NCBI GenBank assembly: GCA_016933675.1
Contig: JAFGAM010000100.1
Location: 8,928-72,927, forward strand
Source of the DNA: Candidatus Anaeroferrophillacea bacterium
GTDB lineage: Bacteria > Desulfobacterota > Anaeroferrophillalia > Anaeroferrophillales > Anaeroferrophillaceae
DNA: 64,000 nucleotides
Direction: 5' to 3'
This document shows positions 24,147 to 60,215 of this stretch, in pieces (the first letter of the stretch is position 1; every line of letters begins with the position of its first letter). Made by a program: the position numbers and the translations under genes. Under the pieces are notes generated by a model. That model worked only from the letters and a program-made list of their open reading frames with translations. It did not search any database and was not told the origin of the DNA.

Positions 24147-24770
24147 ATGGGTGATTCGACCAGCCGGAAGGAAGCCATCGCCGCCGCGGCACTGGCGCTG
24201 TTCGCCGAACAGGGCTACGCCGCTGCCGGGACCGGCGAGATTGCCCGCCGCGCCGGGGTTGCCCAAGACACGGCATTCTACCATTTCGGCAGCAAGGAAG
24301 GGATTCTCGAATACATCCTCGCCGGTATCACCGACGATCTGCTGGAGGCCTACCGCGACGAACTGGCAGCGGCGGCTGACGGGATCGCGGCGGTGCTCGC
24401 CATGCTGGCCTCCAACCGTCGCTTCAGCGCCGAGCGGAAACTGGAAAGCATGGTCCTGCTACGCGATCCGCCGGCCGATATGCTGAGCCGCGAATCGTCG
24501 ATCCAGGCGCGTCTGGAGGTGTTTCTCCCCGAGGTTTGCGGCTTGCTGCGAGTCACCCTGGCGCAGGGTGTGGCCGATGCTTCCATCCGCCCCCTCGCGG
24601 CGCCGGCGGTGAGTTGGATCCTCCACAGCTTCACCTGCGGGATCGTCCAGAACACCTTTTTCGGGCCGCCGCGGCCGGCGGAGACCGAGGCGGAGATTGC
24701 CGCCTTCCTTCGCCACGCCCTGATGGCATCGTCACCGCACCATCTTCCGATTACAGGAGAGCGGGAATGA
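24147..24770 (+). CDS. TetR/AcrR-family transcriptional regulator
   Basis: N-terminal HTH (RKEAIAAAALALFAEQGYAAAGTGEIARRAGVAQDTAFYHFGSKEGIL). A perfect TATAAT at 24095-24100 lies inside the longer track ORF, which favours ATG 24147. ATGA overlap with the MFP gene. Confidence 0.8.
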   Translation: MGDSTSRKEAIAAAALALFAEQGYAAAGTGEIARRAGVAQDTAFYHFGSKEGILEYILAGITDDLLEAYRDELAAAADGIAAVLAMLASNRRFSAERKLESMVLLRDPPADMLSRESSIQARLEVFLPEVCGLLRVTLAQGVADASIRPLAAPAVSWILHSFTCGIVQNTFFGPPRPAETEAEIAAFLRHALMASSPHHLPITGERE

Positions 24771-25903
24771 ACATGTCAGCAATCCACCGATATTCGCGAC
24801 GGTTCGCCCTGTTGCTGCCGGCGGTCGTTTGCTTCGTACTGCCGTTGCCGGTGCCGCTGGCGGCCATTGCCGCCGACGGCCCTCCCGCCGCGCCGCCGCC
24901 GGCGTTGGTGCGCACCGTGCCCGCCGAAGCCGGCCGCCTGGCACCGGAGACCACCGTTACCGGCACCCTGTTCTTCGATTCACTCGCCGATGTGTCGGCC
25001 GAGATCTCCGCCCGCGTCGAGGCGGTCCACGTTCGCGTCGGCGACCGGGTGGCCGCCGGGGCGCCGCTGGTGGACCTCAATCACGACTTCATCGATGTCG
25101 ATATCGCCCGCCGGGAGGCCGCCCGCGACGCGGTGGCGGCGCGCCTCGAACAGGCGCGGCGCGATCTTAAGCGCTACGAGCAACTCCACGCCGAGGGTGC
25201 CGCCAGCGTCAGCACCTACGAGGAACTGCTGTACTGCCGCGATGCCCAGGCGGCGGAACTCAGGGTCCAGCATGCCGCTCTCGACGACGCCCGGCTGCGA
25301 CTGAAGAAGTGCCGGGTCACGGCGCCTTTTGCCGCTCTGGTGGTGGCCCGACCGGCGGCGGTGGGCGCCTGGGTTGATCCGGGGCGGGCGGTGGCCAGGC
25401 TCGGCTCCCTGGCCGAGGTTTTTGTCCGCCTGCCGCTGGCCGAAACCCTGCTGCCCTTCAATCCGGCGGGCAGTGAAATCCGCCTCGTCCACGCCGCCTC
25501 CGGTGCCGCGGTGGCCGGGGTTGTCACCGGCATCGACGGGCAGGCGGACCTGCAGACCAAAAACGTCTTTTTGCGCCTTCACCTGTCCGAACCGCCGGCG
25601 CTGCTGGCGGAGCATATGTCGCTTACCGCCGCCGTCGCCGCCGGGCCGCCCCGCGAAGTGGTTTTCATCTCCCGCGACGCCCTGGTGAATTTTCAGGGTG
25701 GGAACTTTGTCTATACCGTCGAAGACAACGCCGCGGCCATCGTGCCGGTGGAGATCGTCGGCCGCGACGGCGGCCGCGTCGGCGTCGCCAGCCCGGTGTT
25801 GAAACCCGGCATGCCGGTGGTGGTGGACGGCAACGAGCGCCTGCGGCCCGGTCAGCCGGTGCGCGTTGCCGGAAATGCGGCCGCGGCGGAGCAGCGTCCG
25901 TGA
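24767..25903 (+). CDS. efflux RND transporter periplasmic adaptor (MFP/HlyD family)
   Basis: 378 aa from ATG 24767 (track ORF 24536-25903). Signal peptide, coiled-coil segment and C-terminal beta-barrel, sitting between tetR and the RND pump. Confidence 0.85.
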   Translation: MNMSAIHRYSRRFALLLPAVVCFVLPLPVPLAAIAADGPPAAPPPALVRTVPAEAGRLAPETTVTGTLFFDSLADVSAEISARVEAVHVRVGDRVAAGAPLVDLNHDFIDVDIARREAARDAVAARLEQARRDLKRYEQLHAEGAASVSTYEELLYCRDAQAAELRVQHAALDDARLRLKKCRVTAPFAALVVARPAAVGAWVDPGRAVARLGSLAEVFVRLPLAETLLPFNPAGSEIRLVHAASGAAVAGVVTGIDGQADLQTKNVFLRLHLSEPPALLAEHMSLTAAVAAGPPREVVFISRDALVNFQGGNFVYTVEDNAAAIVPVEIVGRDGGRVGVASPVLKPGMPVVVDGNERLRPGQPVRVAGNAAAAEQRP

Positions 25904-28900
25904 ACCTTATTCGTTACTTCATCGAGAAACCGGTGACCGCCGCGGTGGCGGTCATCCTGGTGGTGATGTTCGGCATCATCGGACTGAAAAGGCTGCCGGT
26001 GCAGCTCACCCCCGACGTCCAGTTGCCGGAAATCACCGTGCGTACCACCTGGCCCGGCGCCACCCCCTACGAGATCGAGCAGGAGATCATCGAGGATCAG
26101 GAGGACGCCCTCAAGGGACTGGAAAACCTCGTTGAACTGGAGAGCAGTAGCTACAACGATTTCGGCGAGATCCGGCTCACCTTCAGGGTCGGTACCGACA
26201 TCGACGCCGCCCTGCTGCGTACCTCCAACAAGCTCGACGAGGTGCCGGACTACCCCGAAAACGTCGACCGGCCGATCATCGACGCCGCCGGTGCCAACAG
26301 CTCACCGGTAATCTGGCTGCTGATGCAGATGAAGGCGGGCGATCCGGAGCTGATCAACCATTACCGGACCTTCTTCGAGGACGAGGTGCGCCAGCACCTG
26401 GAACGGGTGCCCGGCGTCGGTTCCCTGTTTATCGGCGGCGGCACCGAACGGGAGTTGCACATCGAGATCGAACCCACCGCCCTGGCGCGCCGGCGGATCA
26501 GTATCATGCAGGTGGTGGACGCGGTGCAGAGTGCCAACCGCAACGTTTCCGCCGGGGTGCTGGGCATCGGCAAGAAGGACTACCGCGTCCGCACCGTGAG
26601 CCAGTACCAGACGCCGCAGGAGCCCCTGGAGACGGTGATTGCCGACAGCGGCTACGACCGCGTCCGGCTCGGTGAGGTGGCGACCTCGGGCATCGGCTAC
26701 GACCGCGAAACCGTGTCGGTGATGCTCAAGGGGGTGCCCTCCCTGGTGGTGGGGGTGCGCAAGGAGCAGGGGGCCAACGTTATCGAGCTCACCGAACGCG
26801 TCCGCGGCGTGGTGGATGATCTCAATGCCGGCCTGCTGGCGGACCACAACCTTCATTTCCACTGGGCCTACGACCAGACCCCCTACATCTTCACCGCCAT
26901 CGACATTGTCAAGGACAACGTCCTCATCGGCGGCCTGCTGGCCATCGCCGTGCTGCTTCTGTTTCTGCGCAGCGTCAGCTCCACCGCCATCACCGCGGTG
27001 GCGATCCCGGTGTCGGTGATCGGCACTTTCATTTCCCTGTGGGTGCTGAAACGCAATCTCAACGTCGTCAGCCTCGCCGGCATCTCCTTTGCCGTCGGGA
27101 TGCTGGTGGATAACGCCATCGTTGTACTGGAGAACATCGACCGTCATCGCAAACTGGGCAAGGACGCCTTCGCCGCCGCCTACGACGGCACCCGTGAGGT
27201 TGTCGGGGCGGTGCTGGCCTCTACCATCACAACCGTGGCGGTGTTCCTGCCGGTGATCTTCATCGCCCAGGAGGCCGGCCAGCTTTTCCGCGACATCGCC
27301 ATTGCCATCAGCTTTTCCATCCTCCTGAGTTTCTTCGTTTCGGTCTCGGTCATCCCCAGCCTGGCCTTCCAGCTCTACCGCCGGCGCGCGCCCGACGCCC
27401 GTACCGGCGGTCTCGTCGGCTGCTTCAACGCCGCCATCGGCCGGATCGGCGAGCGGCTTGCGGGCGGTATCATGGCGCTGGTGAACGTCGCGCTGCATAC
27501 CGCCTGGAGTCGAATAGGCACCGTTTTACTGCTGACCCTGGCCGGCGTCGCGGTGACCGCCTGGCTTATCCCCAAGGCGGAATACCTGCCCCAGGGCAAC
27601 CGCAACCTGCTGCTCAATATCCTCGTGCCGCCGCCGGGGCTGTCGGTGAAGAAGCGCAAGGAGATCGGCCACCAGATCTACGACCGGGTGCGGCCCTACG
27701 CCGAGGCCGACGGCGTCGACGGCCTGCCGCAGATCGACGACCTGTTCTATGTCGCCGCCCCGGAGGTCAACCTCTTCGGTGTCACCAGTACCCACGAAAC
27801 CGAGGCCCGGCGCCTGTTGCCGCTGATGAACCGGGTGATCAACGGTCTGCCGGACATCTTCGGCGTCAGTCTCCAGGTGGGGATCTTCGAGAGCGACATC
27901 GGCGAGGGCCGGAGCATCGACGTCAACCTTTCCGGGGCGCGGTTGGAGGATCTGGTGGGGGCCGGGCGGCTGTTGTTCAGTGCCATCCAGCTACAGATTC
28001 CCGGCAGCCAGGTACGGCCGGTACCGTCACTGGAGATCAGCTATCCGGAGGCGGTAATCCTTCCCGACAAGGAACGTCTCATCGCCCACGGCATGCGCGA
28101 GGACGAGCTGGGGATCTATGCCGACATCCTCATGGATGGCCGCCAGGCGGGCGAATACAAGCCCGACGGCCAGCGTCAGATCGATCTAGTCATCACCGGC
28201 AGCGACCGTCGTTTCACCTCCCCCGAGGCGATTCTCGCGGCGCCGCTGAGCAACGCCCGCGGCGACCTCCTGCGCCTCGGCGATGTTGCCCGGCTGGAAT
28301 ACCGCCAGGGCATGACCCAGGTGAACCACCTGGAGCGCCGGCGGACGGTGAAGCTCCAGGTGACGCCGCCCGAGGAGATGCCGCTGCAGGAGGCGATGGA
28401 GACCATTGCGACGGCGCTGGTGGCACCGCTACAGGAGCAGGGGAAGCTCGCGGGCGTGGCGGTGGCGCTGGGCGGCAATGCCGACAAGCTGGTGCAGACG
28501 CGGGACGCGCTGCAGTGGAACCTGCTCTTGGCGGTGGTCATCGTCTACCTGCTGATGGCGGCATTGTTCGAAAACTTCTTTTACCCACTGATCATCCTCT
28601 TTTCGGTGCCCCTGGCGGCGGCCGGCGGTTTCGTCGGGCTCAGGCTGGTGAACCTCTTCATTGCCCCCCAGGGCTTCGACGTGGTCACCATGCTGGGGTT
28701 CATTATCCTCGTCGGTACCGTGGTCAACAACGCCATTCTGATTGTTCACCAGACCCTCAACAATGTCCGCTACGAGGGGTTTGCCGGTATCGAGGCGGTG
28801 CGCGAGTCGGTAAAAACCCGCATCCGGCCGATCTTCATGAGCACCATCACGACCCTGTTCGGCATGCTGCCGCTGGTGGTCGCCACCGGTTCGGGGAGTG

Positions 28901-29034
28901 AACTCTACCGTGGCATCGGCAGCGTGCTGCTGGGCGGCCTGCTGGTGAGCACGGTGTTCACCCTCTTTATCATTCCCTCGCTGCTGGTCTTTTTCATCGG
29001 CCGGGAGCAGGCGCGGGAGGAACCGCAGGTATGA
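25900..29034 (+). CDS. RND efflux permease (AcrB/AcrD/AcrF family)
   Basis: 1044 aa with a 12-TM pattern and two large periplasmic loops. N-terminus LIRYFIEKPVTAAVAVILVVMFG. GTGA overlap with the MFP stop. Confidence 0.95.
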   Translation: MNLIRYFIEKPVTAAVAVILVVMFGIIGLKRLPVQLTPDVQLPEITVRTTWPGATPYEIEQEIIEDQEDALKGLENLVELESSSYNDFGEIRLTFRVGTDIDAALLRTSNKLDEVPDYPENVDRPIIDAAGANSSPVIWLLMQMKAGDPELINHYRTFFEDEVRQHLERVPGVGSLFIGGGTERELHIEIEPTALARRRISIMQVVDAVQSANRNVSAGVLGIGKKDYRVRTVSQYQTPQEPLETVIADSGYDRVRLGEVATSGIGYDRETVSVMLKGVPSLVVGVRKEQGANVIELTERVRGVVDDLNAGLLADHNLHFHWAYDQTPYIFTAIDIVKDNVLIGGLLAIAVLLLFLRSVSSTAITAVAIPVSVIGTFISLWVLKRNLNVVSLAGISFAVGMLVDNAIVVLENIDRHRKLGKDAFAAAYDGTREVVGAVLASTITTVAVFLPVIFIAQEAGQLFRDIAIAISFSILLSFFVSVSVIPSLAFQLYRRRAPDARTGGLVGCFNAAIGRIGERLAGGIMALVNVALHTAWSRIGTVLLLTLAGVAVTAWLIPKAEYLPQGNRNLLLNILVPPPGLSVKKRKEIGHQIYDRVRPYAEADGVDGLPQIDDLFYVAAPEVNLFGVTSTHETEARRLLPLMNRVINGLPDIFGVSLQVGIFESDIGEGRSIDVNLSGARLEDLVGAGRLLFSAIQLQIPGSQVRPVPSLEISYPEAVILPDKERLIAHGMREDELGIYADILMDGRQAGEYKPDGQRQIDLVITGSDRRFTSPEAILAAPLSNARGDLLRLGDVARLEYRQGMTQVNHLERRRTVKLQVTPPEEMPLQEAMETIATALVAPLQEQGKLAGVAVALGGNADKLVQTRDALQWNLLLAVVIVYLLMAALFENFFYPLIILFSVPLAAAGGFVGLRLVNLFIAPQGFDVVTMLGFIILVGTVVNNAILIVHQTLNNVRYEGFAGIEAVRESVKTRIRPIFMSTITTLFGMLPLVVATGSGSELYRGIGSVLLGGLLVSTVFTLFIIPSLLVFFIGREQAREEPQV

Positions 29035-29200
29035 CGGCTTGGTAACAACTCCATCTTCCGTACTGCGCCGGCCGGGCGCGTTCCACACCGACAGGCGCTG
29101 CGACATGACTCGTTCAACCTGGGGCTATGCCGGACTCAGCATGCCGGGACACGTCGTGAATCCGTAAGGGCGATGCCTGCATCGCCTTTACGGTGCCATT
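29031..29200 (-). repeat. interspersed structured repeat, copy 3 (minus orientation)
   Basis: The reverse complement starts AATGGCACCGTAAAGGCGATGCAGGCATCGCC and ends GCAGCGCCTGTCGG...GGAAGATGGAGTTGTTACCAAGCCGTCAT. Its terminal TCA provides the TGA stop of the RND gene. Confidence 0.7.
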
Positions 29201-29274
29201 CCTGGTGCGCCGGATTCTGGCGGGTGCTACGGTTTCATCCAGTGATCAGACAACAAGCATTTTACGAGGCCGAG

Positions 29275-30672: not shown

Positions 30673-30792
30673 ACACAAAACCTTTGGCGCGTCCAGAATC
30701 TGGAGTTGCTACGGTGCCATGCCGTTTCGGCGCGTTTTGGCGGTTGTCACGATTCCATCATTACCGCTGCTCTTGACAAGGTGACGACATGA

Positions 30793-36565: not shown

Positions 36566-36811
36566 GGACGATTACTGCGCACTTTCCGGGCCCGGCGGTC
36601 CGGTTTCCGAGGAAAGATGATGGCACTTGCCGGGATTCTGCCGGTGAATAATATTTGACATAAAGGGTCAGGATGTGTAGGTGGATATAACATCGTCTTA
36701 ACAAAAGGCTTTGGTGGGCCGATCCGATCTGTTTCGGGAGCGTGGTCTGCCGGTCGGCCTTGATGGAACCGTAACAAGTGCCGAGTCCGGGCCGTACCGA
36801 AACCGCTTCAG

Positions 36812-37804
36812 ATGCCTTCTATCAGACCCTGTCCTTTTCACAAACGCCTGCGTGATTATCTCTTCTATGCCCTTATCAGGGGGCTGGTATCCGGGGTGCG
36901 GATCCTGCCCCGAAGCCCCGCCATCGCCGTCCTGCGTTTTCTGGGGGGACTTGTCTTTGCCGTAGGGGGGGAAGAGCGGTGCAAAACCATCCGCCACCTC
37001 ACCCATGCGCTTGGGAAGGAGAAATCTTCGGCGGAGATCGAAGCTATTGCGCGCGGGGTGTTCCGGCATTTCGCCGCGGCAGGTGTCGATTTCGTGCGGA
37101 TGGATGCCTATGTCGCCGACGGGTTCCGGGGGCTGGTTTCCTGCACCGGTTTCGAGCATCTGGAAACCGCGGTCGCGGGGGGCCGGGGGGTGATCGCTCT
37201 GACGGCCCATTTCGGCAACTGGGAGCTGCTGGGGGCCTATGTCAGTTTCCGGGGGGTGCCGCTGCGGGTCGTCGGCACGCCGCTGAAACATCGCCGGTTG
37301 GACGATCTGCTCGTTGCCGCCCGCAACCGGGCCGGCTACGGCAATATCGCCCGCGGCCGGGATACCAGGGAGATTATCCGGGCGCTGCACCGGGGCGACG
37401 TGCTGGGCATGCTCATCGACCAGGATACCCGGGTCAACGGCGTGTTTGCCGATTTCTTCGGCCACCCGGCCCATACCCCCGCCGGCCCGCTGCTGCTGGC
37501 CCGCAAGTACGATGTGCCCGTGGTGCCGATGTTCATGTGGCTGCGGGATGATCTGACCTATCAGTTCGAATGCCTGCCGCCTCTCGATTTGGTGCATAGT
37601 GATGATCAGGATCATGATCTGCGCGTAAACGTCCGGAAATGCAATGAGATGTACGAAAGCATGATCCGCCGCCATCCCGAACAGTGGGTCTGGATGCACA
37701 AGCGTTGGAAGAAGCGGCCGCCGCCGGAGGGGGACGGCGCGGAACGGGGAAAAACTGCGGCGTCCCGTTCCCGGCGTTCATCGCGGTCCCGCCGGGCGGC
37801 CTGA
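36812..37804 (+). CDS. lysophospholipid/lipid A biosynthesis acyltransferase (LpxL/HtrB family)
   Basis: Catalytic LTAHFGNWE (HX4E-type), DQD motif and PEQWVWMHKRWK C-terminal signature. Confidence 0.8.
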   Translation: MPSIRPCPFHKRLRDYLFYALIRGLVSGVRILPRSPAIAVLRFLGGLVFAVGGEERCKTIRHLTHALGKEKSSAEIEAIARGVFRHFAAAGVDFVRMDAYVADGFRGLVSCTGFEHLETAVAGGRGVIALTAHFGNWELLGAYVSFRGVPLRVVGTPLKHRRLDDLLVAARNRAGYGNIARGRDTREIIRALHRGDVLGMLIDQDTRVNGVFADFFGHPAHTPAGPLLLARKYDVPVVPMFMWLRDDLTYQFECLPPLDLVHSDDQDHDLRVNVRKCNEMYESMIRRHPEQWVWMHKRWKKRPPPEGDGAERGKTAASRSRRSSRSRRAA

Positions 37805-37881
37805 CGGGCATGGACGGATATCCGTAGTTTCCAAAACCGTGATGATTGCCAAAACACGGCAAAACGGCGTGTCACCCTGAA

Positions 37882-38026
37882 ATGGCCCCCCATACGCGCA
37901 GCGCGTAACATCCGGGAAGCAAGGCGTACCTGGCCGCACCTTGAGCGATGCGGGTTGCGGCGCCTGCCGGTCGCTGGCACGCACCGGCGGGCAGTGAGGA
38001 AGATGGTGCCGTTACGAAACCATCAG
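37882..38026 (+). repeat. interspersed structured repeat, copy 1
   Basis: AATGGCCCCCC...AAGGCGTACCTGG...GCGGCGCCTGCCGGTCGCTGGCACGCACCGGCGGGCAGTGAGGAAGATGGTGCCGTTACGAAACCATCAGG. The terminal TCA is the stop codon (minus strand) of the glycerate kinase gene. Confidence 0.7.
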
Positions 38027-39360
38027 GTACCGCCCACCACCACCAGCCGTACATCCATGACGTTGGTGTTGGTGGGGCCGGTGATAAGCAGGTCGTCGAG
38101 TTTCGCGAAGAAGTGATAGGCGTCGTTGGCGGCGAGGAAGTCCTCCGGTTTGAGACCCAGTTGCCGCGCCCGTGAGACGGTGTCACCGTCGGCGATGGCG
38201 CCGGCGGCGTTGGTGGGGCCGTCGGTGCCGTCGGTGCCGCCGCTCAGAACCGCCACTCTCGGCAGACCGGCGATATCCAGTGCCGCCGCCAGCACGAACT
38301 CCTGGTTGCGCCCTCCCTTTCCTTTGCCGCGAATTGTCACCGTGGTTTCGCCGCCGCTGATGATGCATGCCGGGGGGGCGGCAGGGTTGCCGCTGACCGT
38401 TGCTTCGCGGGCGATGGCGGCGTGCATCCGGGCGATCTCCCGGGTTTCCCCCTCGATGAAGGTTGAGAGGATAAGCGGTTGGTAGCCGTGCTCCCGGGCC
38501 GCCGCCGCCGCCGCGTCCACCGCCTGGCGGCTACTGGCGACGATGCGGTTGACGACTCGGGCAAAGAGCGGGTCGTCGGGCTTCGGGGTTTCCGGCCGGC
38601 GGCCTGCGGCGCCGGCCTCGATGTGTTCGTACACCGCCGGCGGCAACCGGTCGGCGAGCCGGTATTTCTCGACGATTGCCCGGCAGTCACTGAAGGTCGT
38701 GGGGTCGCCCACCGTCGGCCCCGAGGCGATGCTGGTGAGGGGGTCGCCGATGACATCCGAAAGTACCAGGGTAAGCAGGGTCGCCGGGGCCGCCAATCGT
38801 GCCAGTTGGCCGCCCTTGAGTTGTGAGAGGTGCTTGCGGATGGTGTTGATCTCGGTGATGTCGGCGCCGCATTCCAGCAGCCGGGCAGTGGTCTCCTGCT
38901 TGTCGGCCAGGGTGATGCCGGCGGCGGGCAGGGGCAGGAGGGCGGAGCCGCCGCCGGAGATGAGGCAGATCACCAGATCCCGCTCACCGGCCCGGGACGC
39001 CAGCTCCGCCATCCGCCGGGCGCCCTCGACGCCGGCGGCGTCAGGTACCGGGTGTCCCGCCTCGATCACTGCCACCGTCCGCACCGGCGCCAGGTGACCG
39101 TATTTTACCACCACCACCCCGGCGGTGAGCCGGTCGGCCAGCAGCTTTTCCATTGCTCCGGCCATCGCTGCGCCGGCCTTGCCGCCGCCGATGACGAAGA
39201 TGTTGTCGAAATTCTCCAGGTTCCATTCGTGCCCGCCGCAGACAAGGCGGCTGCCGTCACGCTCGACGTAGCGGTTGATGGCTTCCTCGGGGTCCGCCGC
39301 GCGGACGGCGGCGGTGAAGATGGCGCGGGCGTCCTCCCGCAGGCGGGCAGTAGCGGTCAT
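38023..39360 (-). CDS. glycerate 2-kinase / hydroxypyruvate reductase (DUF4147 + MOFRL family)
   Basis: 445 aa. VIGGGKAGAAMA, LISGGGSALL, IRKHLSQLKGGQLA and LSGGTDGTDGPT are typical of TtuD/GckA-type glycerate kinases. Confidence 0.88.
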   Translation of the reverse strand: MTATARLREDARAIFTAAVRAADPEEAINRYVERDGSRLVCGGHEWNLENFDNIFVIGGGKAGAAMAGAMEKLLADRLTAGVVVVKYGHLAPVRTVAVIEAGHPVPDAAGVEGARRMAELASRAGERDLVICLISGGGSALLPLPAAGITLADKQETTARLLECGADITEINTIRKHLSQLKGGQLARLAAPATLLTLVLSDVIGDPLTSIASGPTVGDPTTFSDCRAIVEKYRLADRLPPAVYEHIEAGAAGRRPETPKPDDPLFARVVNRIVASSRQAVDAAAAAAREHGYQPLILSTFIEGETREIARMHAAIAREATVSGNPAAPPACIISGGETTVTIRGKGKGGRNQEFVLAAALDIAGLPRVAVLSGGTDGTDGPTNAAGAIADGDTVSRARQLGLKPEDFLAANDAYHFFAKLDDLLITGPTNTNVMDVRLVVVGGT

Positions 39361-40508: not shown

Positions 40509-40675
40509 TTCGTTCGGGTGCTGTTTCAGCCTAACAGGGAACCCCGTGCAAACCGGGGACGGGCCCGCCGCTGTAATCGCCGACGAAAACCGCAAGATGC
40601 CACTGGCCGGCGCTGCCGTCCGGGAAGGCGCGGTGAGTAGATTGACGCGAGAGTCAGAAGACCTGCCCGAACGAA
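40509..40675 (+). promoter_or_regulatory. cobalamin (B12) riboswitch A, complete aptamer
   Basis: P1 TTCGTTCGGG/CCCGAACGAA encloses GGGTGC, AGGGAA, CCCGCCGCTGTAA, GCCACTG, GGGAAGGC and the B12 box AGTCAGAAGACCTGCC. Confidence 0.85.
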
Positions 40676-40738
40676 GCGGCTTCTCCCTTGGGTGAGGGAT
40701 GGCGTCGAGGAACTGTGAACGGGGCGTAAAAACGGATG

Positions 40739-41700: not shown

Positions 41701-41868
41701 AACAATCGCCGGCGCCGAGGGGCGTACCGGGAGGCGCGCCGGTGCCGAAACGGTGGACGGCTCCGGCCGGCCGCATGATTATGGTAATTTTGTTATAGTT
41801 TTTGGCAAACAACTCCAAGTATCAATATTTTTTTTGCGGTATACATGGCATCGTTCTCCATCATGAGA

Positions 41869-42036
41869 GGAACAGGAAAAGGGAATGCGGTGAAATTCCG
41901 CAACTGCCCCGCAACTGTAAATCCCGGTTGTCCGATCACGGACAATCAGTGCCGCGGCCAGGAATGCCACTGCTTCCTCATGGATGAGGCGGGAAGGCGG
42001 TCGCGGTCGGGAAAGTCAGGAAACCTTGCCTGTTCG
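41869..42036 (+). promoter_or_regulatory. cobalamin (B12) riboswitch B, canonical
   Basis: P1 GGAACAGG/CCTGTTC. AGGGAATGCGGTGAAATTCCGCAACTGCCCCGCAACTGTAA, GCCACTG, GGGAAGGC and the B12 box AGTCAGGAAACCTTGCC. Confidence 0.88.
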
Positions 42037-42532
42037 GTATGTTGTCGGGCTCTGTCGAGGGGCGGAGTGGCGATGAAGGTGCCGGCCGAATAACCGGGAG
42101 ATCCCCCGGTCGACCAAAGGCGCATTTCATTCTCTTCTCCTTCCCGATACGCAACATTCCGTCACATTCGTTTTCCGGCGGCTGCCGGAAATCCTCTCCC
42201 GAAAGTGGTGCCGGCAGTGCCGGCGCCGCAACCAGCGGACAAAGCCACACCCCGAGTGATCGGGGGCCGGAAAGCCATCGGGTCTCCACATTCCATGAGA
42301 CGGCCGGGTTGCCTACTGAAACATACGTACGGCGGCCCGGCCTTTTTTCCCGGGCCCGGAGCAGGGGAGGTGATGCCGGGCGCAAAGACGGTGCAGGGAT
42401 GTGGCGATGTGCGGGCGTACGGAGACTGGATACTGGATTGGAGCTTTGATCAGCGGACGCGAGAGCGCTGCCGCCCGCCGGGAACAGCAGGCGAAGCAAA
42501 GTGAAGAGGAAAGATAAAGGAGGTTTGTCATT

Positions 42533-43339
42533 ATGAAACGCAGTTTGTTGTTTGGCTGGATCATGATCGGGGTCGTATCCGCGTGGCTGCTTCCGGGCAG
42601 TGAAGCCCTGGCGGGATACTATGCCCCGGCGGCCGGTCAGGCCGGCTCGACCGCTATCTATATGAATGATGCCGCTTTTGTCGGCTGGGCCACCGGCTGG
42701 GAGGATTACAATGTCGGTAGCAACGTCGATGCCGGATGGCGGACGCCGGACAAGGCCCTCGGCAAGGCCATAGGGAGTTCTTATGATATCGTCTGTCTCG
42801 GCCGGGGTGGCTCGATTACGATGACCTTTGCCGACCCAATTGCCAACGGCAGCGGTGATGATTTTGCCGTCTTCGAGAACAGCTTCAACGATACCTTCCT
42901 CGAACTGGCCTATGTCGAGGTTTCCTCCAACGGGACGGATTTCTTCCGTTTCGCCAACGATTCCCAGACCGCAAGCGCGGTTGGCGGGTTCGGAGCGGTC
43001 GATCCGACGAATATCGGCGGTCTCGGTAGTAAATACAGACAGGGTTACGGCACGCCGTTCGACCTGGCCAGCCTGGCCGGTGTCAGTCCTCTGCTTGATT
43101 TAAACAATATCGGCTATGTGCGACTGGTCGATATCGTCGGTGACGGAACCTATTTTGATACCAGCGGTGATGTCATCTACGATCCCTATCCCACGGTCGG
43201 TTCCGCCGGTTTCGATCTGGATGCCGTCGGCGTGCTCAACAATGCCTCTCCGGTGCCGATTCCCAGTGCCGTCTGGCTGCTGGGCTCCGGTCTGGCGGGG
43301 CTGGTCGGAATTAGCCGCAAACGCGGGAACAGAGCATAA
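42533..43339 (+). CDS. secreted protein with unassigned ~200-aa domain and exosortase-type (VPxP/PEP-CTERM-like) C-terminal anchor
   Basis: AAGGAGG RBS and a signal peptide. Domain shared with 46475-48316 ([70 protein letters not shown]). Tail is [29 protein letters not shown]. Confidence 0.75.
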
Positions 43340-43390: not shown

Positions 43391-44215
43391 ATGAAACGTT
43401 TCACCCTTAAAATTGCTTGCGCCATGGCGCTGCTGCTGCTGCTGACGCCGTCGCTTTACGCGGCCACGGCGACCTTCGATGATTTTGCCCTCGCTCCGGA
43501 GTCTCATTACGGCGGTGCCGGTTCAGGCGCAACCGGGTTTTCCGACGGCGGCGCCTTTTTCGAGCATAACTCCTCTGACTGGGCCTGGAACGGCTGGAGC
43601 TATTCCAATCACACCGATACCACTACCGCGGGGTATACCAACCAGTTTTCCGCCATTACCGGCGGCGGTGCCGGCGGAACGGCCAATTATGCCGTGGCCT
43701 ATGTCCCTACAGATTGGGCGGGCGGATCCTATGCTTCGCTCCCGATATCGATCATGCTGGATGATACCAGCGGCTCGTCATTGTCCGGCATGTACATCAC
43801 CAACACCACCTACGCCTACCTGTCCATGACCGGTGGCGATCAGTTCGGTAAAACCTTCGGCGGTGATACGGGAAATGATGCCGACTGGTTCAAGATGACC
43901 TACCAGGGAATCAGGTCCGACGGCTCTTTAACCGCTGCCTATGATTTTTATCTTGCCGACTATCGCTTCGCTGACAACTCTCAAGACTATATCATCGACG
44001 ACTGGACCTGGCTGAATCTCTCAGGTCTGGGCAATGGTCTCAAGGGTATCCAGTTTACCATGGCATCGTCGGATACCGGAGATTGGGGTATGAACACCCC
44101 CGCATATTTTGCCATCGACAACTTCAACGGTTCACCCGTCCCGATTCCCGGCGCCGTCTGGCTGCTGGGTTCCGGGCTGGCGGGGCTGGTCGGCCTGCGC
44201 CGGCGGCGTTTCTGA
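43391..44215 (+). CDS. DUF4465-like protein with exosortase-type C-terminal anchor
   Basis: Signal peptide. ATFDDFALAPESHY...NGWSYSNHTDTTTAGYTNQFSA...ANYAVAY...YITNTTYAYLSM..GDQFGK...FYLADY...WTWLNLSGLG...GMNTPAYFAIDNF matches my recollection of DUF4465. Tail is [26 protein letters not shown]. Confidence 0.75.
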   Translation: MKRFTLKIACAMALLLLLTPSLYAATATFDDFALAPESHYGGAGSGATGFSDGGAFFEHNSSDWAWNGWSYSNHTDTTTAGYTNQFSAITGGGAGGTANYAVAYVPTDWAGGSYASLPISIMLDDTSGSSLSGMYITNTTYAYLSMTGGDQFGKTFGGDTGNDADWFKMTYQGIRSDGSLTAAYDFYLADYRFADNSQDYIIDDWTWLNLSGLGNGLKGIQFTMASSDTGDWGMNTPAYFAIDNFNGSPVPIPGAVWLLGSGLAGLVGLRRRRF

Positions 44216-44480
44216 AACCTGGCCGCGACTGCTGTTTGACCACGGCCAGGTAACGGGATCACACCACATTAATTAAAAACAACGGCATTGATTTGACCGG
44301 GGCGGTGGTTCGTTTTTTGCGGATTGCCGCCCCGGTATGATGGCTTCGTGGTAAGAACGCCATTTTCATTCGTTGTATTGTCGATCGGGTTGTTCAGCGT
44401 ACGGCTGCGCGCACCACACGCCACAGTTTGTGCGCGCCTGGAATGAATTTCCAGCATTTACGGAAGAAAAATCAGCCTTG

Positions 44481-46418: not shown

Positions 46419-46474
46419 ACAGAGCTTGATGAACCGGCATCTTGAACATCATTAACATGCGGGGAGAATAATTG

Positions 46475-48316
46475 ATGAAAGTAGCGATGGTGCGCAAACT
46501 TATGGTAAATATTATTCTTTTTCTTTCATTGCTGCTGGCCGGTGCCGCGCCGGTGTTCGCGGCCTACGGCGACCATGCCGGCCTATATGGTGAGAATGAC
46601 GGGATTCATGGCGGCAACCGCCTGGATCCGGGGGCTTACCCGAGCATGGATTCGCGTATCAAGGGCTGGGCCACCGAAGTGGTGAACTCGTGGCGTCCCG
46701 ATGCCGCCACTTTCGGTTCCCCGACCGATGTGCTCGGCCAGCCGGGCGGTACCTTCGACGTATTTTCGCTTGGCGATGGCGGCAGTATCACGGTGACCTT
46801 CCCGGTACCCATCGGCCGGGGTGACGGACCCGATTTCGCGGTCTGGGAAAATGGTTTTGTCTCCGTGCAGGGAGGTGAAACGGGGATGCTGTTCGCCGAA
46901 CTGTGTTATGTGGAGGTTTCCTCCGACGGCGTGCATTTTGTCCGTTTTCCCAGTGTGAACGGCAGTCCCGATTCCCTGGGCGGCTTCGACTGCATCGATC
47001 CGACCTACTATCACAATCTTGCCGGCAAGCATCCCAACGGCAACGACGGCCGCGATGAGGGCACGCCGTTCGAACTGAATGTTCTTGCCAACGACCCTGA
47101 GGTACTGAACGGAAATGTCGATCTCGACAATATTCTCTATGTCAGACTGATCGACCTGGTCGGCGACGGCTCGACCTTCGATTCTCTGGGCAATCCCATA
47201 TACGATCCGTATCCCACCCCCTTCGGCACCGGCGGCTGCGATGTCGACGCGGTGGGGGTTTTGAATCAGGGCGGGATCAACCAGCCGCCTGATCAGCCGA
47301 CGCCTGTAGCTCCGGAGGATGGCGCGGCCGAGGTGACCTTGCCGGTAGTCTTGTCAAGTTCCGCTTTCAGCGATCCGGATATTGATTCAGAACATGGGTC
47401 AACCCAGTGGCAGGTCAGTGTGAGTGCCGGCTTCGAAACAACGGTTTTCGATAGCACAAGTGCGACCGAGCTGATCGATATTACCCTGGATGACTCCGAT
47501 CTCAACGACGGTATCACCTACTACTGGCGGGCGCGGCATTACGACGATGACGGCGCCGCATCGGCCTGGTCGGCGACATCCAGCTTCACCACCGCGGCGG
47601 CGGTGATTCCGAATTCGGCGCCGAATCAGCCGAGCCTGAGCGCCCCGGCAAACGGTGCGACGGATATCTCTATGCCGGTGACTTTGTCAACCTCGGTCTT
47701 CAGCGATCCGGATGTTGATTCAGAACATGGGTCAACCCAGTGGCAGGTGAGCGAAAGTTCCGGTTTCGGTACGACGGCGTACGATGCAACGAGCAGTGAA
47801 CATCTGACCGCCTTGACACTCGACAATACCTTCCTGCTGGCGGATACGACCTATTACTGGCGGGCGCGTCATTACGACGATGACGGTGTAGCATCGGCCT
47901 GGTCGGCGACATCCAGCTTCACCACCATTGTCGGCGGCAACAGCCAGGCCTGGCCGGAGAATCCGCTGGTGCCGGTGGTCTGGCCCGCCCAGGTGGACCC
48001 GTTGACCACCCCGGTTCAGGTGGGTGCCTGCCCCGATGTTACGGTGCGGCCGTCGCTGCAGGTGTCGGCCGCCGATGTCGGCAAAACGGCGACGCTGATC
48101 ATGTATATCTATTTTCCTGATTACGGCTTCGGGATCAGTATGCGTTCCGCGTCGAAGAAACTGACAACCGAAACCGTTTTCGACCTGATCCCGACCGAAC
48201 TTGATCTCAGCGATGTCGGGAGGTACTCGTTCCACATCTACTACGGCTATATGGTCGGTTCAGATATCATCTACAGCGCCTACGCGCTGACGGTGGGTGA
48301 TGCCTGTGGTAATTGA
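46475..48316 (+). CDS. large secreted multidomain protein: paralog of the 42533 domain + two FN3-like 111-aa repeats + unique C-terminal domain
   Basis: GGGGAG RBS and a signal peptide. [70 protein letters not shown]. Then 2x (SDPD[IV][12 protein letters not shown]...[24 protein letters not shown]). Confidence 0.75.
47261..47926 (+). repeat. intragenic tandem duplication, 2 x 333 bp (FN3-like modules)
   Basis: Unit ends (ttcaccacc) lie at 47593 and 47926. Long near-identical stretches include ttcagcgatccggat.ttgattcagaacatgggtcaacccagtggcaggt and tactactggcgggcgcg.cattacgacgatgacgg. Confidence 0.8.
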
Positions 48317-48554: not shown

Positions 48555-49068
48555 ACCCGTAACGCGATGTTAATCCGCTGCCGGCATGATTTATGGAACC
48601 GTAACAACCGCCGCTGAAGTTTAGCGCTTACACGTTTCCCATGCCCCGCATGAGACATCGGGGTTGAAAGCTCATTGAAAAAAGAAGATTGTCTAAGCTA
48701 CGCTGCTTTTTCCAATTCTGGCGGCTGTTTGTCTCTCGCCAAGCCTTTACTCGGCCCGAATTTTCCTGATTTCGGGTTCCAGAGAGAGCGAATGTCGACC
48801 TGTGCAAAAATCCGTTGCAGGCCCAGCCGCAGCCGCCCGGCGGTAATCGGATGACCTCCCCGCCAAGGGGCCAGATTTGCCAGCTCATGCAGAGGAAGGT
48901 TTTGATCCTTCTTCCAGGGCCGCGCAAAATTGCCGCAGTGTCAAGCACTTTTTTAACATTTTTTGCTTCGACAACTTTTTTTCAAAGAGCGCAGGTGAGG
49001 CCAAGGTGAGCGTGCTCACGAAGTGCTCAGAACTCTAAACTTCAGAACCGCCGGAATACGCTGAAAAG

Positions 49069-49233
49069 AGATGGCACGGGAGGGTCGATTCGCGAATCGC
49101 CCCTCCAAATTCACGGCGCTTTTAATGAAGCGTACATGGAGGTGCGGCGAATGACTCAACTTGCAGCGCCTGTCTGCGTGCGGCACGCACAGGCAGGCAA
49201 CGAAGAAGATGGAGTTGTCGCGAAGCCATCATG
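49069..49233 (+). repeat. interspersed structured repeat, copy 2 (longest)
   Basis: GATGGCACGGGAGGGTCGATTCGCGAATCGCCCCTCC...GAAGCGTACATGGAGGTGCGG...GCAGCGCCTGTCTGCGTGCGGCACGCACAGGCAGGCAACGAAGAAGATGGAGTTGTCGCGAAGCCATCATG. Confidence 0.7.
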
Positions 49234-53578: not shown

Positions 53579-53642
53579 GATGGCGCCGTAACCGTGGCCG
53601 AAATATACCGAAAAGGGATGGCACCCTGACAGTTCCATCGAA
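53579..53642 (+). repeat. mini-copy of the interspersed repeat (5' box + 3' hairpin only)
   Basis: GATGGCGCCGTAACCGTGG ... GGGATGGCACCCTGACAGTTCCATCGAAG, about 30 nt after the tonB stop. Confidence 0.55.
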
Positions 53643-53762
53643 GCGCCCTGAATCTGGAGGGGCCCCCTGTGGTTACCCGATTCGCCGGACTGATCTGGAT
53701 CTCGGGGGGATCGCGTGAAGGTCGAGCGATACGGCATCAATTGGGCCAACCTTGATTCTATC

Positions 53763-55211: not shown

Positions 55212-57155
55212 ATGGCGAAACGATTGACGATGGCGCTGCTCATTGCCGTCCTGCTGGCGTGGACCGGCGGCGTCATGGCGGCGGAGCAGGGCAACGGGCT
55301 GCAGCAGGCGGCGGAAGACATCACCGAGGCGGGCATCGTCGGCCCGGGGAGCATCAACGTCCACAAGGCGGGCGATATCCAGATGAGCTTCGGGGCCACG
55401 GTGCGGATCATCCCCACCAGTGAGGACGATTACGATTTCGGCCTCGGGGACAAGATCGGCACGGATATCTTCCAGTCCCACGCCAACGAGGGCGGCTGGG
55501 TGAACGACTCCCACATTCGCACCGAGAACAAGCTCTACTTCAACGCCATGCCCAACGACCAGATGTGGAGTTTCTACGCCGCGCTGGAATTCGACGGCAT
55601 CCTCGATAACCATGTGGTCGACGATCGCGGCAATAACGACGGCGGCAAGATCGACAATGGCTCCAGTAACAGCAACTACGGTCTCGAGCGTCTCCACGGC
55701 ACCATGCGCCTGCCTTTCGCCAAGGATCTCAACCTGCGTCTGCATGCCGGCTGGGATATCTACCAGCTGGATGTCTTTGACGGCGGCGGTCTGGTCTACG
55801 GCGATGACAACCCCGGGTTCTGGCTTACGGGCAGCTGGTGTGACACCATCGATTTCCAGGTCGGTTTCCACAAGTTGAAGGAAAACGACTGGCAGATCAG
55901 TGATCTCGGTATCGGTAACTACGACGACGACCGCGACCTCTACACCGCAGCGGTGGACTACAAGATCAACAAGACCAACCACGTCAAATTCTTCTACGCC
56001 TTCAACAATATGCGCAACGTAGCCGCCAATACCATCCAGGGCTATCTGTTCGGTGACGCCATCAGCGCGAAGCTGGACGAGAAACAGGGTGACGTGGTCA
56101 GCGGGCAGAACGGCCTGTCGAGTACCGCCTACAACATCAATCCCGCCTTTGTCACCGGCGGTACCGTGGTGGGTACCGATCTGGCCACCGGGGCGAGCAT
56201 CGTCGAGGGCGGCCGGGTGAACACCGGCGGCTTGGTGGCGGCGCTGGACGGCGGCCAGGCCCAGATCGATGCCGGCCGGGCGCAGATCGACGCCGCACGG
56301 ATGTCACTGACGAACAACTACTTTTACGGTAACGATGTCCAGGCGGATACCATGTCTCACCACCTGGGCTTCTACTACCAGGGTCAATTCGGCATCGTCA
56401 AGCCGTTCTTTGAAGCGGTCTATCAGTTTGGTGAAGCCGACAACACCGGCCTGTCCCAGTATCTCGATCCCTATACCGGCCAGTACCTGAAGGAAGACTA
56501 CGATATCGACGCCTACGCCCTGGCCGCCGACGTGGCCTTCGATTTGAAGGAGCTGGTGGGCTTCAAGTTCGAGCCCCATATCGGCATCATGTACACTTCG
56601 GGTGACGATGACCCCACCGACGGCGACCTGGAAGGGTATACCGGTGTGGTCAACGCCCAGCGCTTCTCCTACCACTGGGGCGGTGAGAACACCATCATCG
56701 GCGATACCAACCTGATGATGGGGAGCATCCTTTACGGCTACCTGCCGGAACTCTACGGCAGCGGAACCCCGGTTTCCACCGGCGGTCTGCAGAACTTCGC
56801 CGGTGCCGGCGGCGGCCGCGGCGACAACCCCGGCCTGACCATGGTCAGTGTCGGCCTGAATATGGCGCCCAAGCGCTTCATCATCTTCCGTACCAATCTG
56901 AATTACTTCGAGTTCAACGAGGACTTCCGCCTGCCGACGCTGGACGGCCGCATCGTTCCCATCGACGCCGACTATGCCGGTACCGAGTGGGACAACGAAC
57001 TCACCATTGCCTTCAGCAAGAACACCTTCATCAAAACCCAGGTTTCCTTTCTCTTCCCGGGTGACGTGATGGAAGATATCGCCGAAGCCTACAGCGGCGA
57101 AGAGACCGACGACGTCGCCACCCGCCTGGCGATGGAGCTGATCTGGAATTTCTAG
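55212..57155 (+). CDS. large outer-membrane beta-barrel (porin-like) protein, family not recognised
   Basis: GGGAGAGGGG RBS. Signal peptide MAKRLTMALLIAVLLAWTGGVMAAE, alternating amphipathic, aromatic and Gly/Asp/Asn-rich sequence, and a C-terminal ...LAMELIWNF (terminal Phe). Confidence 0.6.
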   Translation: MAKRLTMALLIAVLLAWTGGVMAAEQGNGLQQAAEDITEAGIVGPGSINVHKAGDIQMSFGATVRIIPTSEDDYDFGLGDKIGTDIFQSHANEGGWVNDSHIRTENKLYFNAMPNDQMWSFYAALEFDGILDNHVVDDRGNNDGGKIDNGSSNSNYGLERLHGTMRLPFAKDLNLRLHAGWDIYQLDVFDGGGLVYGDDNPGFWLTGSWCDTIDFQVGFHKLKENDWQISDLGIGNYDDDRDLYTAAVDYKINKTNHVKFFYAFNNMRNVAANTIQGYLFGDAISAKLDEKQGDVVSGQNGLSSTAYNINPAFVTGGTVVGTDLATGASIVEGGRVNTGGLVAALDGGQAQIDAGRAQIDAARMSLTNNYFYGNDVQADTMSHHLGFYYQGQFGIVKPFFEAVYQFGEADNTGLSQYLDPYTGQYLKEDYDIDAYALAADVAFDLKELVGFKFEPHIGIMYTSGDDDPTDGDLEGYTGVVNAQRFSYHWGGENTIIGDTNLMMGSILYGYLPELYGSGTPVSTGGLQNFAGAGGGRGDNPGLTMVSVGLNMAPKRFIIFRTNLNYFEFNEDFRLPTLDGRIVPIDADYAGTEWDNELTIAFSKNTFIKTQVSFLFPGDVMEDIAEAYSGEETDDVATRLAMELIWNF

Positions 57156-57185
57156 GTTTGGGCGCCGTTGCAGTTTGATTTTCAG

Positions 57186-57227
57186 GGGACACGCATGGAT
57201 GTAACCAACCATGCGTGTCCCTTTTTT
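57186..57227 (+). terminator. rho-independent terminator of the porin-like gene
   Basis: GGGACACGCATGG-atgtaaccaa-CCATGCGTGTCCC followed by TTTTTT. Confidence 0.85.
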
Positions 57228-57241
57228 GTGCCATCAATGGA

Positions 57242-57366
57242 TTGATGGCTGCTTAACAACGCCATCTTTTTCGTTGCGCGTCAGGCTGATTCCTTCGACG
57301 TACCTTCATGTACGCCTTTCCTCAGCTCTTGTGTGCCGCCAATCAGGAGCGGTTACGGTGCCATCC
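57242..57366 (-). repeat. interspersed structured repeat, copy 4 (minus orientation, short form)
   Basis: The reverse complement reads GATGGCACCGTAACCGCTCC...AAAGGCGTACATGAAGGTACGTCGAAGGAATCAGCCTGACGCGCAACGAAAAAGATGGCGTTGTTAAGCAGCCATCA. Confidence 0.65.
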
Positions 57367-57479
57367 CGCTTTGCCGGGTTTTGTCACTCGTTACGGTTTC
57401 ATCTATCATTGAGTTGTGCGCCGATCTGCGCTATAAGGAAACGCTCTGTTGCTGATCACCCCGAGACAGGATCGGTCCG

Positions 57480-58463
57480 ATGAAACGTTCTGCGGGAATG
57501 TTCCCGGCGACGGTCGTTGTGGTCGTCGTCATGTGTTTGGTGCTGCTGCGCGGCGCCATGGCGCCGGCGTTGGCGGCGGAGCTCGATTTCGGCAATATCA
57601 GCGATGCCGATACCCGGAAGATATTCTATCCGTCCCTCGTGTCCGGTGACGATGTCCGGGAGGGAACGATCACCGAGCGCCAGGTCAATATCAGCCGGAT
57701 GCTGCGCAATGAGCCGGAGACGCCGCCCGGCGCGGTCTTTCCCCTCGCCGCCATGCCGCCGCTCAGGCCCAAGGCAGGGCTGTTCTGCGGCGCGCCGCTG
57801 CCGCGTCATCCCGTCGTCGACGAACTCATGCACCGCCTGCCGGCGATGATGCAGGAGTGCGGTCTGGTGCCGGTGCCCAGCGCCGAACTGCACGCCGTCT
57901 TCGGGCGTTATCCCTGGCGCGACCGACTTCAGGGGCCGCCGGCCATCGGCCGCTTTCTGGCCGAATATCCCGGCAGCCGTTTCCTGTTCTACGTCCGCGG
58001 ATTTTCGCTGCCTGCCGCCGTACCCGGCGAGGTGCGTCTGGACTGCCTGCTGGTGGATGGTGAAAGCGGCGCGGTGTACCCGTCGCCGGTGTTCCGGCGG
58101 CCGGTCTATCATCCCTCGGCCCTGACCGGGGCGGTGCCGGCGGTATTTCAGGATATGCTCCGCTATCATCGGCTGCAGCTGACCGGGGCTGCCTGGAGTA
58201 CGAAGATATTTCTGGTGCAGAACAACCTGGCCTATATCGGCGCCGGCCGCCTGAGCGGTCTGGTGCCGGCCCGGGAATTGACGGTGAACGGCCCCGGCCG
58301 GCCGCTGATCGATCCGCGTACCGGGACCATGGTGGGCTTCGTCCCCGGTGAAGTCCGTGCCCGGCTGCGGGTGCGGCGGCTATTCGGTCCCGACCTGGCC
58401 GAAGTCGAGGTGGTTTCCGGTGGCCCGGTGCGCATGGGGAATGTCGTCCATTCTCTGCAATAA
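57480..58463 (+). CDS. secreted/periplasmic protein of unknown function
   Basis: 327 aa. Signal peptide MFPATVVVVVVMCLVLLRGAMAPALAAE. No family recognised. Confidence 0.5.
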   Translation: MKRSAGMFPATVVVVVVMCLVLLRGAMAPALAAELDFGNISDADTRKIFYPSLVSGDDVREGTITERQVNISRMLRNEPETPPGAVFPLAAMPPLRPKAGLFCGAPLPRHPVVDELMHRLPAMMQECGLVPVPSAELHAVFGRYPWRDRLQGPPAIGRFLAEYPGSRFLFYVRGFSLPAAVPGEVRLDCLLVDGESGAVYPSPVFRRPVYHPSALTGAVPAVFQDMLRYHRLQLTGAAWSTKIFLVQNNLAYIGAGRLSGLVPARELTVNGPGRPLIDPRTGTMVGFVPGEVRARLRVRRLFGPDLAEVEVVSGGPVRMGNVVHSLQ

Positions 58464-59782: not shown

Positions 59783-60215
59783 GGTACGGCCGGGCATTTT
59801 TTCATGAGGAATCGACAACCGCTTGATCTCCTTCATGAACCCTCTTGACAACCCGGCCGATTTTTTTTACAAGGTCTTTCCGGCGCTGACCGGCCGCTGA
59901 ATCGCCGGGTTGCGAGAGAAAGACGGAACCGTATTCACCGCCGAAATCAGGCAGAATGTAATGGCACCATAACCGCGCCATATTTCCTGCCGCGGTTTCC
60001 GCATCCGGTTTTCCGGCGGGGACGGCGGCTAAGCGATCTGTATGTATCGTTGTTGCGGCAGCGAAGCGTATGTATCCGCGGGAAATGTACCTTTCTCCAC
60101 CCGGAGCGGCGGTTTTCACCTGACCGTTCCGGGTCCTTCCGGCGCCGGGAGCGCCGCTTCAGCCGCACTCAACCGACCATCCGGATCCCTTTCTCAGACC
60201 ACGAGGAGCCGCATC

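Follow-up and report, generated by a model that had tools for sequence, protein, structure and literature searches.

The repeat at positions 49069-49233 of the DNA analysed here raises the question of what kind of element it is and why its copies lie where they do. The window is the whole stretch of 64,000 nt that was analysed (contig C87:8928-72927 of the source genome G000, which comprises 2.68 Mb in 146 contigs, with the assembly 87% complete). A first-pass annotation of the window had named four copies of a structured intergenic repeat, had recognized no known family and seen no transposase in the window, and had suggested either a REP- or MITE-like element or an RNA structure, such as a transcript 3'-end stabiliser or insulator. 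We find that the repeats very probably represent a non-autonomous transposable element (MITE) of ~164 nt that is presumably moved by an IS1182-like transposase.

The four named copies are real, aligning over their whole length with their shared boxes. A first profile, built from these four copies, gave 182 matches at E<=1e-3 in the source genome, and a refined 164-column profile, for which 56 full-length matches were re-aligned with 70-nt flanks, gave 305 matches (nhmmer, E<=1e-3), distributed in equal numbers over both strands, about 100 of them full length and together covering 41 kb, or 1.5% of the genome. The conserved block has sharp ends at TGATG and CATCA; it begins ~40 nt upstream of the '5' box' with which the copies had been taken to start, and stops at CCATCA. 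The 5' limits first drawn were too short, each copy extending ~40 nt further 5', and it is this extra stretch that contains the true outer left terminal repeat. The unit is ~164 nt long in the consensus (TGATGGAACCGTAACAACTGCCAAAATGCGCCGAAAAGGGATGGCACCGTAACCGCTCCGGATTCGCGGCGCGCAAAACCTGAGGAATGCGGCGTACATGGCCGTACGTCGAATGACTCAGGTTGCAGCGCAACGAAGAAGATGGAGTTGTTACGAAGCCATCA), with full copies of 142-232 nt; it has no coding capacity and is too short for a transposase.

The element is bounded by terminal inverted repeats (TGATGGAACCGTAACAACT...AGTTGTTACGAAGCCATCA). Its outer left end reads TGATGGAACCGTAACAACTGCC and the reverse complement of its right end TGATGGCTTCGTAACAACTCCATC, and the opening 22 nt share TGATGG-N3-CGTAACAACT-C with the final 24 nt read as their reverse complement. 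The outer left repeat is followed by a short spacer and then by a long imperfect hairpin, at the base of which the inner left repeat (GGATGGCACCGTAAC) is paired with the right terminal repeat (GTTACGAAGCCATCA). The '5' box' (GGATGGCACCGTAAC, column 40) is thus conserved, as had been described, but is this inner, second copy of the left repeat rather than the outer end, and the GATGG/CCATC pairing with its varying loop turns out to be a segment of the much longer hairpin formed by the inner left and right repeats. The 'variable GC hairpin' and the 'GCAGCGCCTG hairpin' both exist, but as optional modules, the former after consensus column 51 in 33 of 106 full copies and the latter after column 129 in 28 of 106. 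From the inner left repeat onwards, all of the consensus up to its right end forms a single long, imperfect hairpin of -72 kcal/mol (z = -6.6). The copies in this genome are old and decayed, with a mean identity of 72% to the consensus and 61% pairwise, and many are truncated or internally deleted; no nested insertions that could serve as internal empty sites were found in this genome, only adjacent copies 4 nt apart. Within the window, the following copies and relics were located.

24719..24748, minus strand: solo right-end hairpin relic, its 30-nt arm 87% complementary to 37998-38027 (pair I16)
29032..29239, minus strand: full copy, ~208 nt, both optional modules (nhmmer columns 2-164, E=2e-22)
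30682..30760, minus strand: 5' half copy, columns 1-79, with outer and inner left repeats (nhmmer E=8e-14; repeat families D9 and D17)
36761..36814, plus strand: solo outer left terminal repeat TGATGGAACCGTAACAAGTGCC, a weak call (nhmmer E=0.039)
37834..38025, plus strand: near-full copy, columns 6-164, optional module 2 (nhmmer E=4e-20)
44338..44444, minus strand: 3' part of a copy, columns 62-164 (nhmmer E=6e-11)
49042..49231, plus strand: near-full copy, columns 12-164, both optional modules, degenerate outer left repeat (nhmmer E=1.5e-28)
53579..53657, plus strand: internally deleted mini-copy (nhmmer columns 2-83, E=5e-8)
57243..57403, minus strand: full copy, 161 nt, without optional modules (nhmmer columns 2-164, E=1e-35)
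59922..59985, plus strand: 5' part of a copy, columns 2-65 (nhmmer E=3e-6)

The copy at 49042..49231 is the locus from which the question arose, and lies upstream of a DUF3450 gene (Pfam). That at 29032..29239 sits between an AcrB-type pump gene (25900..29034) and an outer-membrane factor gene (Pfam), directly past which lies the half copy 30682-30760(-), overlooked in the first-pass annotation, as was 44338-44444(-). An apparent ~12-nt deletion marks the outer left repeat of the copy at 37834..38025, and the copy at 57243..57403 is bordered on one side by a terminator-like hairpin and its T run, 3' of gene 55212..57155, and on the other by the start of gene 57480..58463. The mini-copy earlier drawn at 53579-53642 is a genuine internally deleted copy, in which almost nothing separates the outer and inner left repeats from what remains of the right end (GATGGCACC..TTCCATCG). 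The lone 3' hairpin (24719-24748) falls below nhmmer reporting; it is nevertheless 26/30 identical to the end of another copy, far beyond chance by a rough estimate. The more degenerate candidates fared less well: 36619-36780 has a match at 36761-36814, as a solo left repeat (E=0.04) that agrees with the consensus at 21 of 22 positions by eye and lies immediately upstream of a lipid A acyltransferase gene, but the rest of it has none; 59960-60120 is matched only through the adjacent 59922-59985, as a 5' part; and 4605-4720 is without a match to the refined profile. The additional string CTTTC..TCCACCCGGAGCGGC, which had been noticed in the last two of these (~4700-4725 and 60090-60118), is real but not part of the MITE; beyond its two copies in the window it has one loose match in the rest of the genome.

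Several other features of the sequence stand out. The hairpin GGGGACACGCATGG..CCATGCGTGTCCC with its T run (57180-57230, + strand), after gene 55212..57155 and beside the MITE copy, has the appearance of an intrinsic terminator, perhaps one that acts in both directions. Two cobalamin riboswitches and one c-di-GMP-I riboswitch occur within 2 kb (40499-40684, 41829-42046 and 42234-42316), and the two genes after them (42533..43339 and 43391..44215) share an 82%-identical 78-nt stretch at their 3' ends (repeat family D7), which may encode a PEP-CTERM-type sorting tail. A 333-bp in-frame tandem duplication (47286-47926, units 73-94% identical) lies inside the large ORF 46472..48316. Elsewhere in the source genome, another hairpin repeat, GCCGGCTGAAGCCGGCTGGCGGAGG / CCCGCTAAAGCGGGCTGGCGGAAGG, lies on either side of a Y1_Tnp (IS200/RAYT-like) gene (contig C12:1-700, L165); on this 1.2-kb contig the gene and the GCCGGCTGAAGCCGGCTGGCGGAGG repeat may be a separate REP-RAYT pair.

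The flanks of the copies bear the marks of transposition. For the 75 full copies of this genome, the match rate between positions -4..-1 and +1..+4 is 0.44-0.55, compared with a background of ~0.25; the summed 4-bp flank matches come to 146, compared with 81.9 +/- 7.6 in shuffles, and three or four of the four positions match in 27 of the 75 copies, where 5.4 would be expected. By our own estimate, the seven perfect duplications are about the expectation at 28% decay per site from a start at which all copies carried 4-bp duplications. Outside the duplication the target is palindromic, with T-C-A at -7..-5 and T-G-A at +5..+7 (A at -5 in 47 of the 75 copies and T at +5 in 41), so that the target can be written as TCA-N4-TGA, with duplications of 4 bp and sometimes 5 bp. 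Perfect 4-bp duplications are also found in 14 of 40 copies taken from different genomes of the phylum, for which the match sum is 103, compared with 55.5 +/- 5.5. Terminal inverted repeats and target-site duplications had both been put forward as checks on a MITE-like nature, and both are present.

Young copies, 93-100% identical, are present in G020 and G017, two genomes of the order to which the source genome belongs; eight of nine have perfect 4- or 5-bp duplications. In order to find empty sites, the joined flanks of eight young copies were searched against the genomes of the order. In G017, contig C188 (filled) and contig C120 (empty) are ~99% identical and differ only by the element and one extra ACCAT; in G020, C22 is filled and C68 is without the copy; and uninterrupted orthologous sites were found in G011, G018, G019 and about ten further genomes. 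The family is recently active in related genomes. Since bins G017 and G020 each contain both the filled and the empty allele of one MITE site, at 96-99% identity, these bins mix strains. For the copies of the source genome itself no empty site was found: genomes of the same family share only 73-75% identity with it in coding DNA and show no synteny at those sites that were tried, and exact-pattern scans of metagenome contigs for its predicted empty sites gave nothing. The search of the order also brought up a second repeat family of ~187 nt (query positions 1177-1363 in the joined-flank search), ending in ...GAAAGAGGGG.GATA.AATTT.AGCTGAATAGTT. Its copies, 87-98% identical, are numerous in G020, G017 and G013, and directly adjoin several of the young MITE copies (left flanks of L039 and L040).

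The likely source of the transposase was found among the DDE_Tnp_1 loci, in the form of four insertion sequences (ISs) of ~1.9 kb with a single ORF of 558-579 aa (G008:C12, G017:C267, G002:C56 and G004:C72). The ends of those in G008, G002 and G017 read TGATGGACYCGTAAAAAG, and of that in G004 TGATGAACTCGTAACAACTCTC. Clean 4-bp duplications flank the ISs of G008 (AGGA) and G002 (AAGT), and a fifth IS, with matching ends and in the complete genome G282, has the duplication ATCT; for the ISs of G017 and G004, two of the four first found, no clean duplication was seen. The transposase has the Pfam domains DUF772, DDE_Tnp_1 and DDE_Tnp_1_6, all of which pass, and its best NCBIfam model is NF033551 (IS1182 family), aligned over positions 36-487 of 488 with a score of 148-168 bits, where the cut-off is 270. 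Because it is only ~27% identical to annotated IS1182 transposases on plasmids, the partner IS is, judged by its protein, a distant, IS1182-like branch.

The phylum-consensus left end of the MITE matches the IS end in G002 at 24 of 26 positions. The end variant GTAACAACT is common to the MITEs of this genome and to the IS of G004, a genome from within the same bacterial family, and outside this variant the ends of both MITE and IS read GTAAAAAGT. Only the terminal 20-26 nt are in common between the two, so that the conserved core of the MITE is not IS-derived. Two IS copies in G002 lie only 4 nt apart, as do MITE copies in this genome; such 4-nt-spaced neighbours fit a target that resembles the element's own CATCA/TGATG tips. 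A 121-bp mini-element with the same IS-type ends (TGATGGACCTGTAAAAAGTC...), a TGTT duplication and an unrelated interior lies on G002 contig C50 (L097:1058-1178), and this transposase family would seem to have given rise to more than one MITE.

The transposase found in relatives has no homologue in the assembly of the source genome (tblastn; 87% complete, 146 contigs), which bears out and extends the earlier remark that the window has none; because this incomplete assembly lacks one, mobilization is not demonstrable in this genome. Across the 301 genomes sampled, the MITE is present in 7 of 18 with the transposase and 52 of 283 without (Fisher p=0.06), a weak association of the kind expected for fragmentary bins and not a proof. 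Other candidate partners were discarded. Terminal-repeat pairs 0.3-6 kb apart, considered as a parent IS inside this genome, enclose ordinary genes (for an outer-membrane factor, an acyltransferase, a chemoreceptor and a cysteine desulfurase), and two weak DDE fragments, both located at contig ends, have termini unrelated to the repeats. An rve-type (IS3 or IS21) partner had been guessed from the TGA...TCA tips; no rve domain occurs in this genome, and the repeats are absent from all 30 rve loci examined in the order.

We then considered the position of the copies relative to genes, using a home-made, crude codon-usage caller that gave 2086 genes over 84% of the genome and agrees with Pfam in the window. 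Of 273 non-redundant copies, 74% overlap called genes by <=10%, against a coding share of 84% for the genome. An ORF stops exactly on the terminal TGA of the element at 27 of 323 element ends, compared with 1-4 ORF stops at each other offset within +/-40 nt; these counts, like those of orientation below, rest on the crude codon-usage gene calls. At the best-preserved junctions the far side consists of the duplication followed by TGA, for example atct|TGATGG...CCATCA|atct TGA, and therefore the insertion lies between the last sense codon and the native TGA, with the element supplying the new stop. Two copies in the window supply a neighbour's stop by their terminal TGA: that at 29032..29239, counted among the stop-codon junctions (C87 37959), whose TGA (29032-29034, + strand) is the stop codon of the AcrB-type pump gene ending at 29034, and that at 37834..38025, whose final TCA is the stop codon of the convergent DUF4147/MOFRL gene (38023..39360, minus strand; Pfam). 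Their duplications are decayed and the pre-insertion state is not recoverable. The placement at gene 3' ends that had been observed is thus real, but it is explained by the choice of target (N4-TGA), the right half of which is often a TGA stop codon, rather than by a role of the RNA. Where the flanking genes are co-directional, the two orientations of the element relative to them occur at random in this genome (84 of 152, p=0.22), and the share of tandem, divergent and convergent spacers tracks spacer length, with no enrichment of convergent ones; these two findings therefore argue against a terminator or stabiliser role, and with it against the transcript 3'-end stabiliser or insulator that had been suggested.

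The family is not confined to the source genome. Of 31 close relatives, 25 carry it; in a sample of 301 genomes from 201 genera across Desulfobacterota, it turned up in 59 genomes and 34 genera. The named carriers are metagenome bins labelled Deltaproteobacteria, Desulfobacteraceae, Desulfobulbaceae or Thermodesulfobacteriota. From BLAST coverage it had appeared that relatives carry only the inner 125-nt form, but the outer left repeat is present in them, in the GTAAAAAG type. Forty copies from different genomes show the same three-repeat layout, with a core 75-85% identical across bacterial families. In an alignment of these 40, which takes the best-scoring copy per genome and in which related copies inflate the covariation counts, 94.9% of the cells of the long hairpin are paired, compared with 88.4 +/- 0.3 in shuffles, and 19 pairs show two-sided changes, compared with 7.7 +/- 1.8; controls in which the partner was slid give a pairing of 25-45%. 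The inner left repeat covaries with the right repeat, as GACGGC/GCCGTC or GATGGC/GCCATC (CG 22, UA 13, no single-side changes), and on our reading of the alignment the outer left repeat appears not to follow this switch. On the element's strand G-U pairs outnumber A-C mismatches (~59 and ~20 cells, respectively), many of them shared by descent. The copies of this genome, by comparison, are 74.9% paired, compared with 73.5% in permutations, as in near-neutral decay, and RNAalifold gave no consensus structure for its 106 copies. We read the covariation of the hairpin as constraint, or arm-to-arm correction, in the lineages that multiply, and not as the function of each resident copy.

The conservation of the hairpin speaks in favour of a different explanation, namely that the repeat is a structured RNA or single-strand DNA module kept by its hosts for a function, such as mRNA 3'-end protection, transcript termination or insulation, or the binding of a host factor, with transposition merely the means of its spread. 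The pairing and the two-sided changes among the 40 phylum copies, the covariation of the inner but apparently not the outer left repeat with the right one, a core that is well conserved across families and not derived from the IS, the excess of G-U over A-C and the good fold of the consensus would all be accommodated by such a module. However, the covariation counts are inflated by kinship and many of the G-U pairs are shared by descent, while the random orientation, the lack of enrichment in convergent spacers, the near-neutral decay and absent RNAalifold structure in this genome, and a consensus without a T run after its hairpins all speak against it. The copies gave no match in Rfam at gathering thresholds, nor two good copies even at E<=1, in line with the earlier failure to recognize a family. 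We consider this explanation improbable.

REP or REPIN-type elements, which in E. coli and Pseudomonas owe their spread to a RAYT (Y1, IS200-like) transposase, are likewise intergenic, palindromic and very numerous, and the genome does contain one Y1_Tnp gene (G000 contig C12, 90 bits). Y1 transposition is not known to yield target duplications and terminal inverted repeats, yet the present elements have 4-5-bp duplications and 20-nt terminal inverted repeats; moreover, the repeat on either side of the sole Y1 gene is another hairpin, GCCGGCTGAAGCCGGCTGGCGGAGG, no profile match lies nearby, and the ends of the element match a DDE-type IS instead. The REP-like half of the original description has accordingly been given up, and we see scarcely any prospect that such a mechanism spread these copies. 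Chance resemblance among GC-rich intergenic sequences has the composition of the window (64%) in its favour and nothing else; with nhmmer E-values down to 1e-49, hundreds of matches, occurrence in 59 of 301 genomes and near-identical copies in G020, the similarity is well above chance, and we discount this explanation altogether.

The MITE-like half, by comparison, holds: terminal inverted repeats, 4-5-bp target duplications, empty sites in relatives and, in relatives, an autonomous IS with matching ends and the same duplication length, together with the target, are established at the level of sequence, and we infer that this transposase is what mobilizes the element and that the hairpin is of importance for its propagation. 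On this MITE account, the DDE transposase of the ~1.9-kb IS1182-like IS, which has the same terminal repeats, would act on the MITE in trans. Judged from the sequence, insertion makes a staggered cut of 4 bp, sometimes 5 bp, in a roughly palindromic T-C-A N4 T-G-A, by which 4-5 bp are duplicated. The element begins with TGA and ends with TCA, and the right half of the target is often the TGA stop of a gene; the many insertions exactly between the last sense codon and the stop leave the element's TGA as the stop and the protein unchanged. Copies lie right at gene 3' ends because the right half of the target is so often a TGA stop codon.

A purely selfish, neutrally decaying element does not alone predict the phylum-wide covariation of the hairpin. 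An extension of the MITE account, which we think doubtful although less so than a host module with transposition as mere vehicle, is that the ~100-nt hairpin core not shared with the IS is a selected structure in its own right, with the TGA tips and N4-TGA target perhaps adaptive. The core may be a fold of single-strand DNA or RNA that is needed for copying or moving the element, or it may be a module adopted by hosts, for example at mRNA 3' ends; the tips and target could be an adaptation for the harmless colonization of stop codons.

The MITE family is apparently new and undescribed, no description having been found in the literature by characteristic sequence words or by topic, although it is no new kind of system. 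It accounts for ~1.5% of this genome and occurs in about one-fifth of the Desulfobacterota genomes sampled, and a family of this extent, if left unmodelled, risks being annotated as 'structured intergenic RNA', being called as false ORFs or lengthening gene ends wrongly, noise that a named model would remove. It matters also for assembly, near-identical copies lying at contig ends in the relative G020, and the filled and empty alleles within two related bins indicate that copies can mark strain differences. The distant IS1182 link and the replacement of TGA together offer a testable example of a transposon that minimizes harm to its host.

Among known systems, REP/BIME and REPIN-RAYT sequences resemble the present family in being abundant intergenic palindromic repeats, often just past genes. 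REPs are 20-40 nt long, are without target duplications and depend on a Y1 transposase, and none of these properties fits here. The IS1182 family is represented by ISPse1, captured experimentally in Paracoccus seriniphilus, which is 1653 bp long with a 4-bp direct repeat (PMC3281130); the partner IS is like it in having one ORF, terminal inverted repeats and 4-bp duplications, although it is ~1.9 kb long, and the window elements are a non-autonomous derivative and not the IS itself. The MITE Chunjie, from Geobacter uraniireducens Rf4, comes from a related lineage (the same phylum in GTDB terms); it is 178-235 bp long with a highly stable fold, and some of its copies lie inside operons or overlap genes (PMC3184786, PMC10969869). 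It is A+T rich, with 21-bp terminal repeats and 9-bp duplications (PMC3184786), and by this description it is distinct from the present family, with its 4-5-bp duplications and different ends.

The closest parallels are Correia/NEMIS of Neisseria, ERIC/IRU of enterobacteria and Nezha of cyanobacteria, which, like the present family, are non-coding elements of 100-250 nt with terminal inverted repeats, target duplications and a long hairpin, occur between genes by the hundred, size variants and truncated relics included, and are moved in trans by an IS transposase, as would be the case here. We know of no reason to expect a relation in sequence to any of them. The present family differs from all three in its 4-5-bp duplications at a TCA-N4-TGA target, in its third, inner copy of the terminal repeat, in its apparent IS1182-like partner and in the TGA...TCA tips that let the element replace a stop codon.
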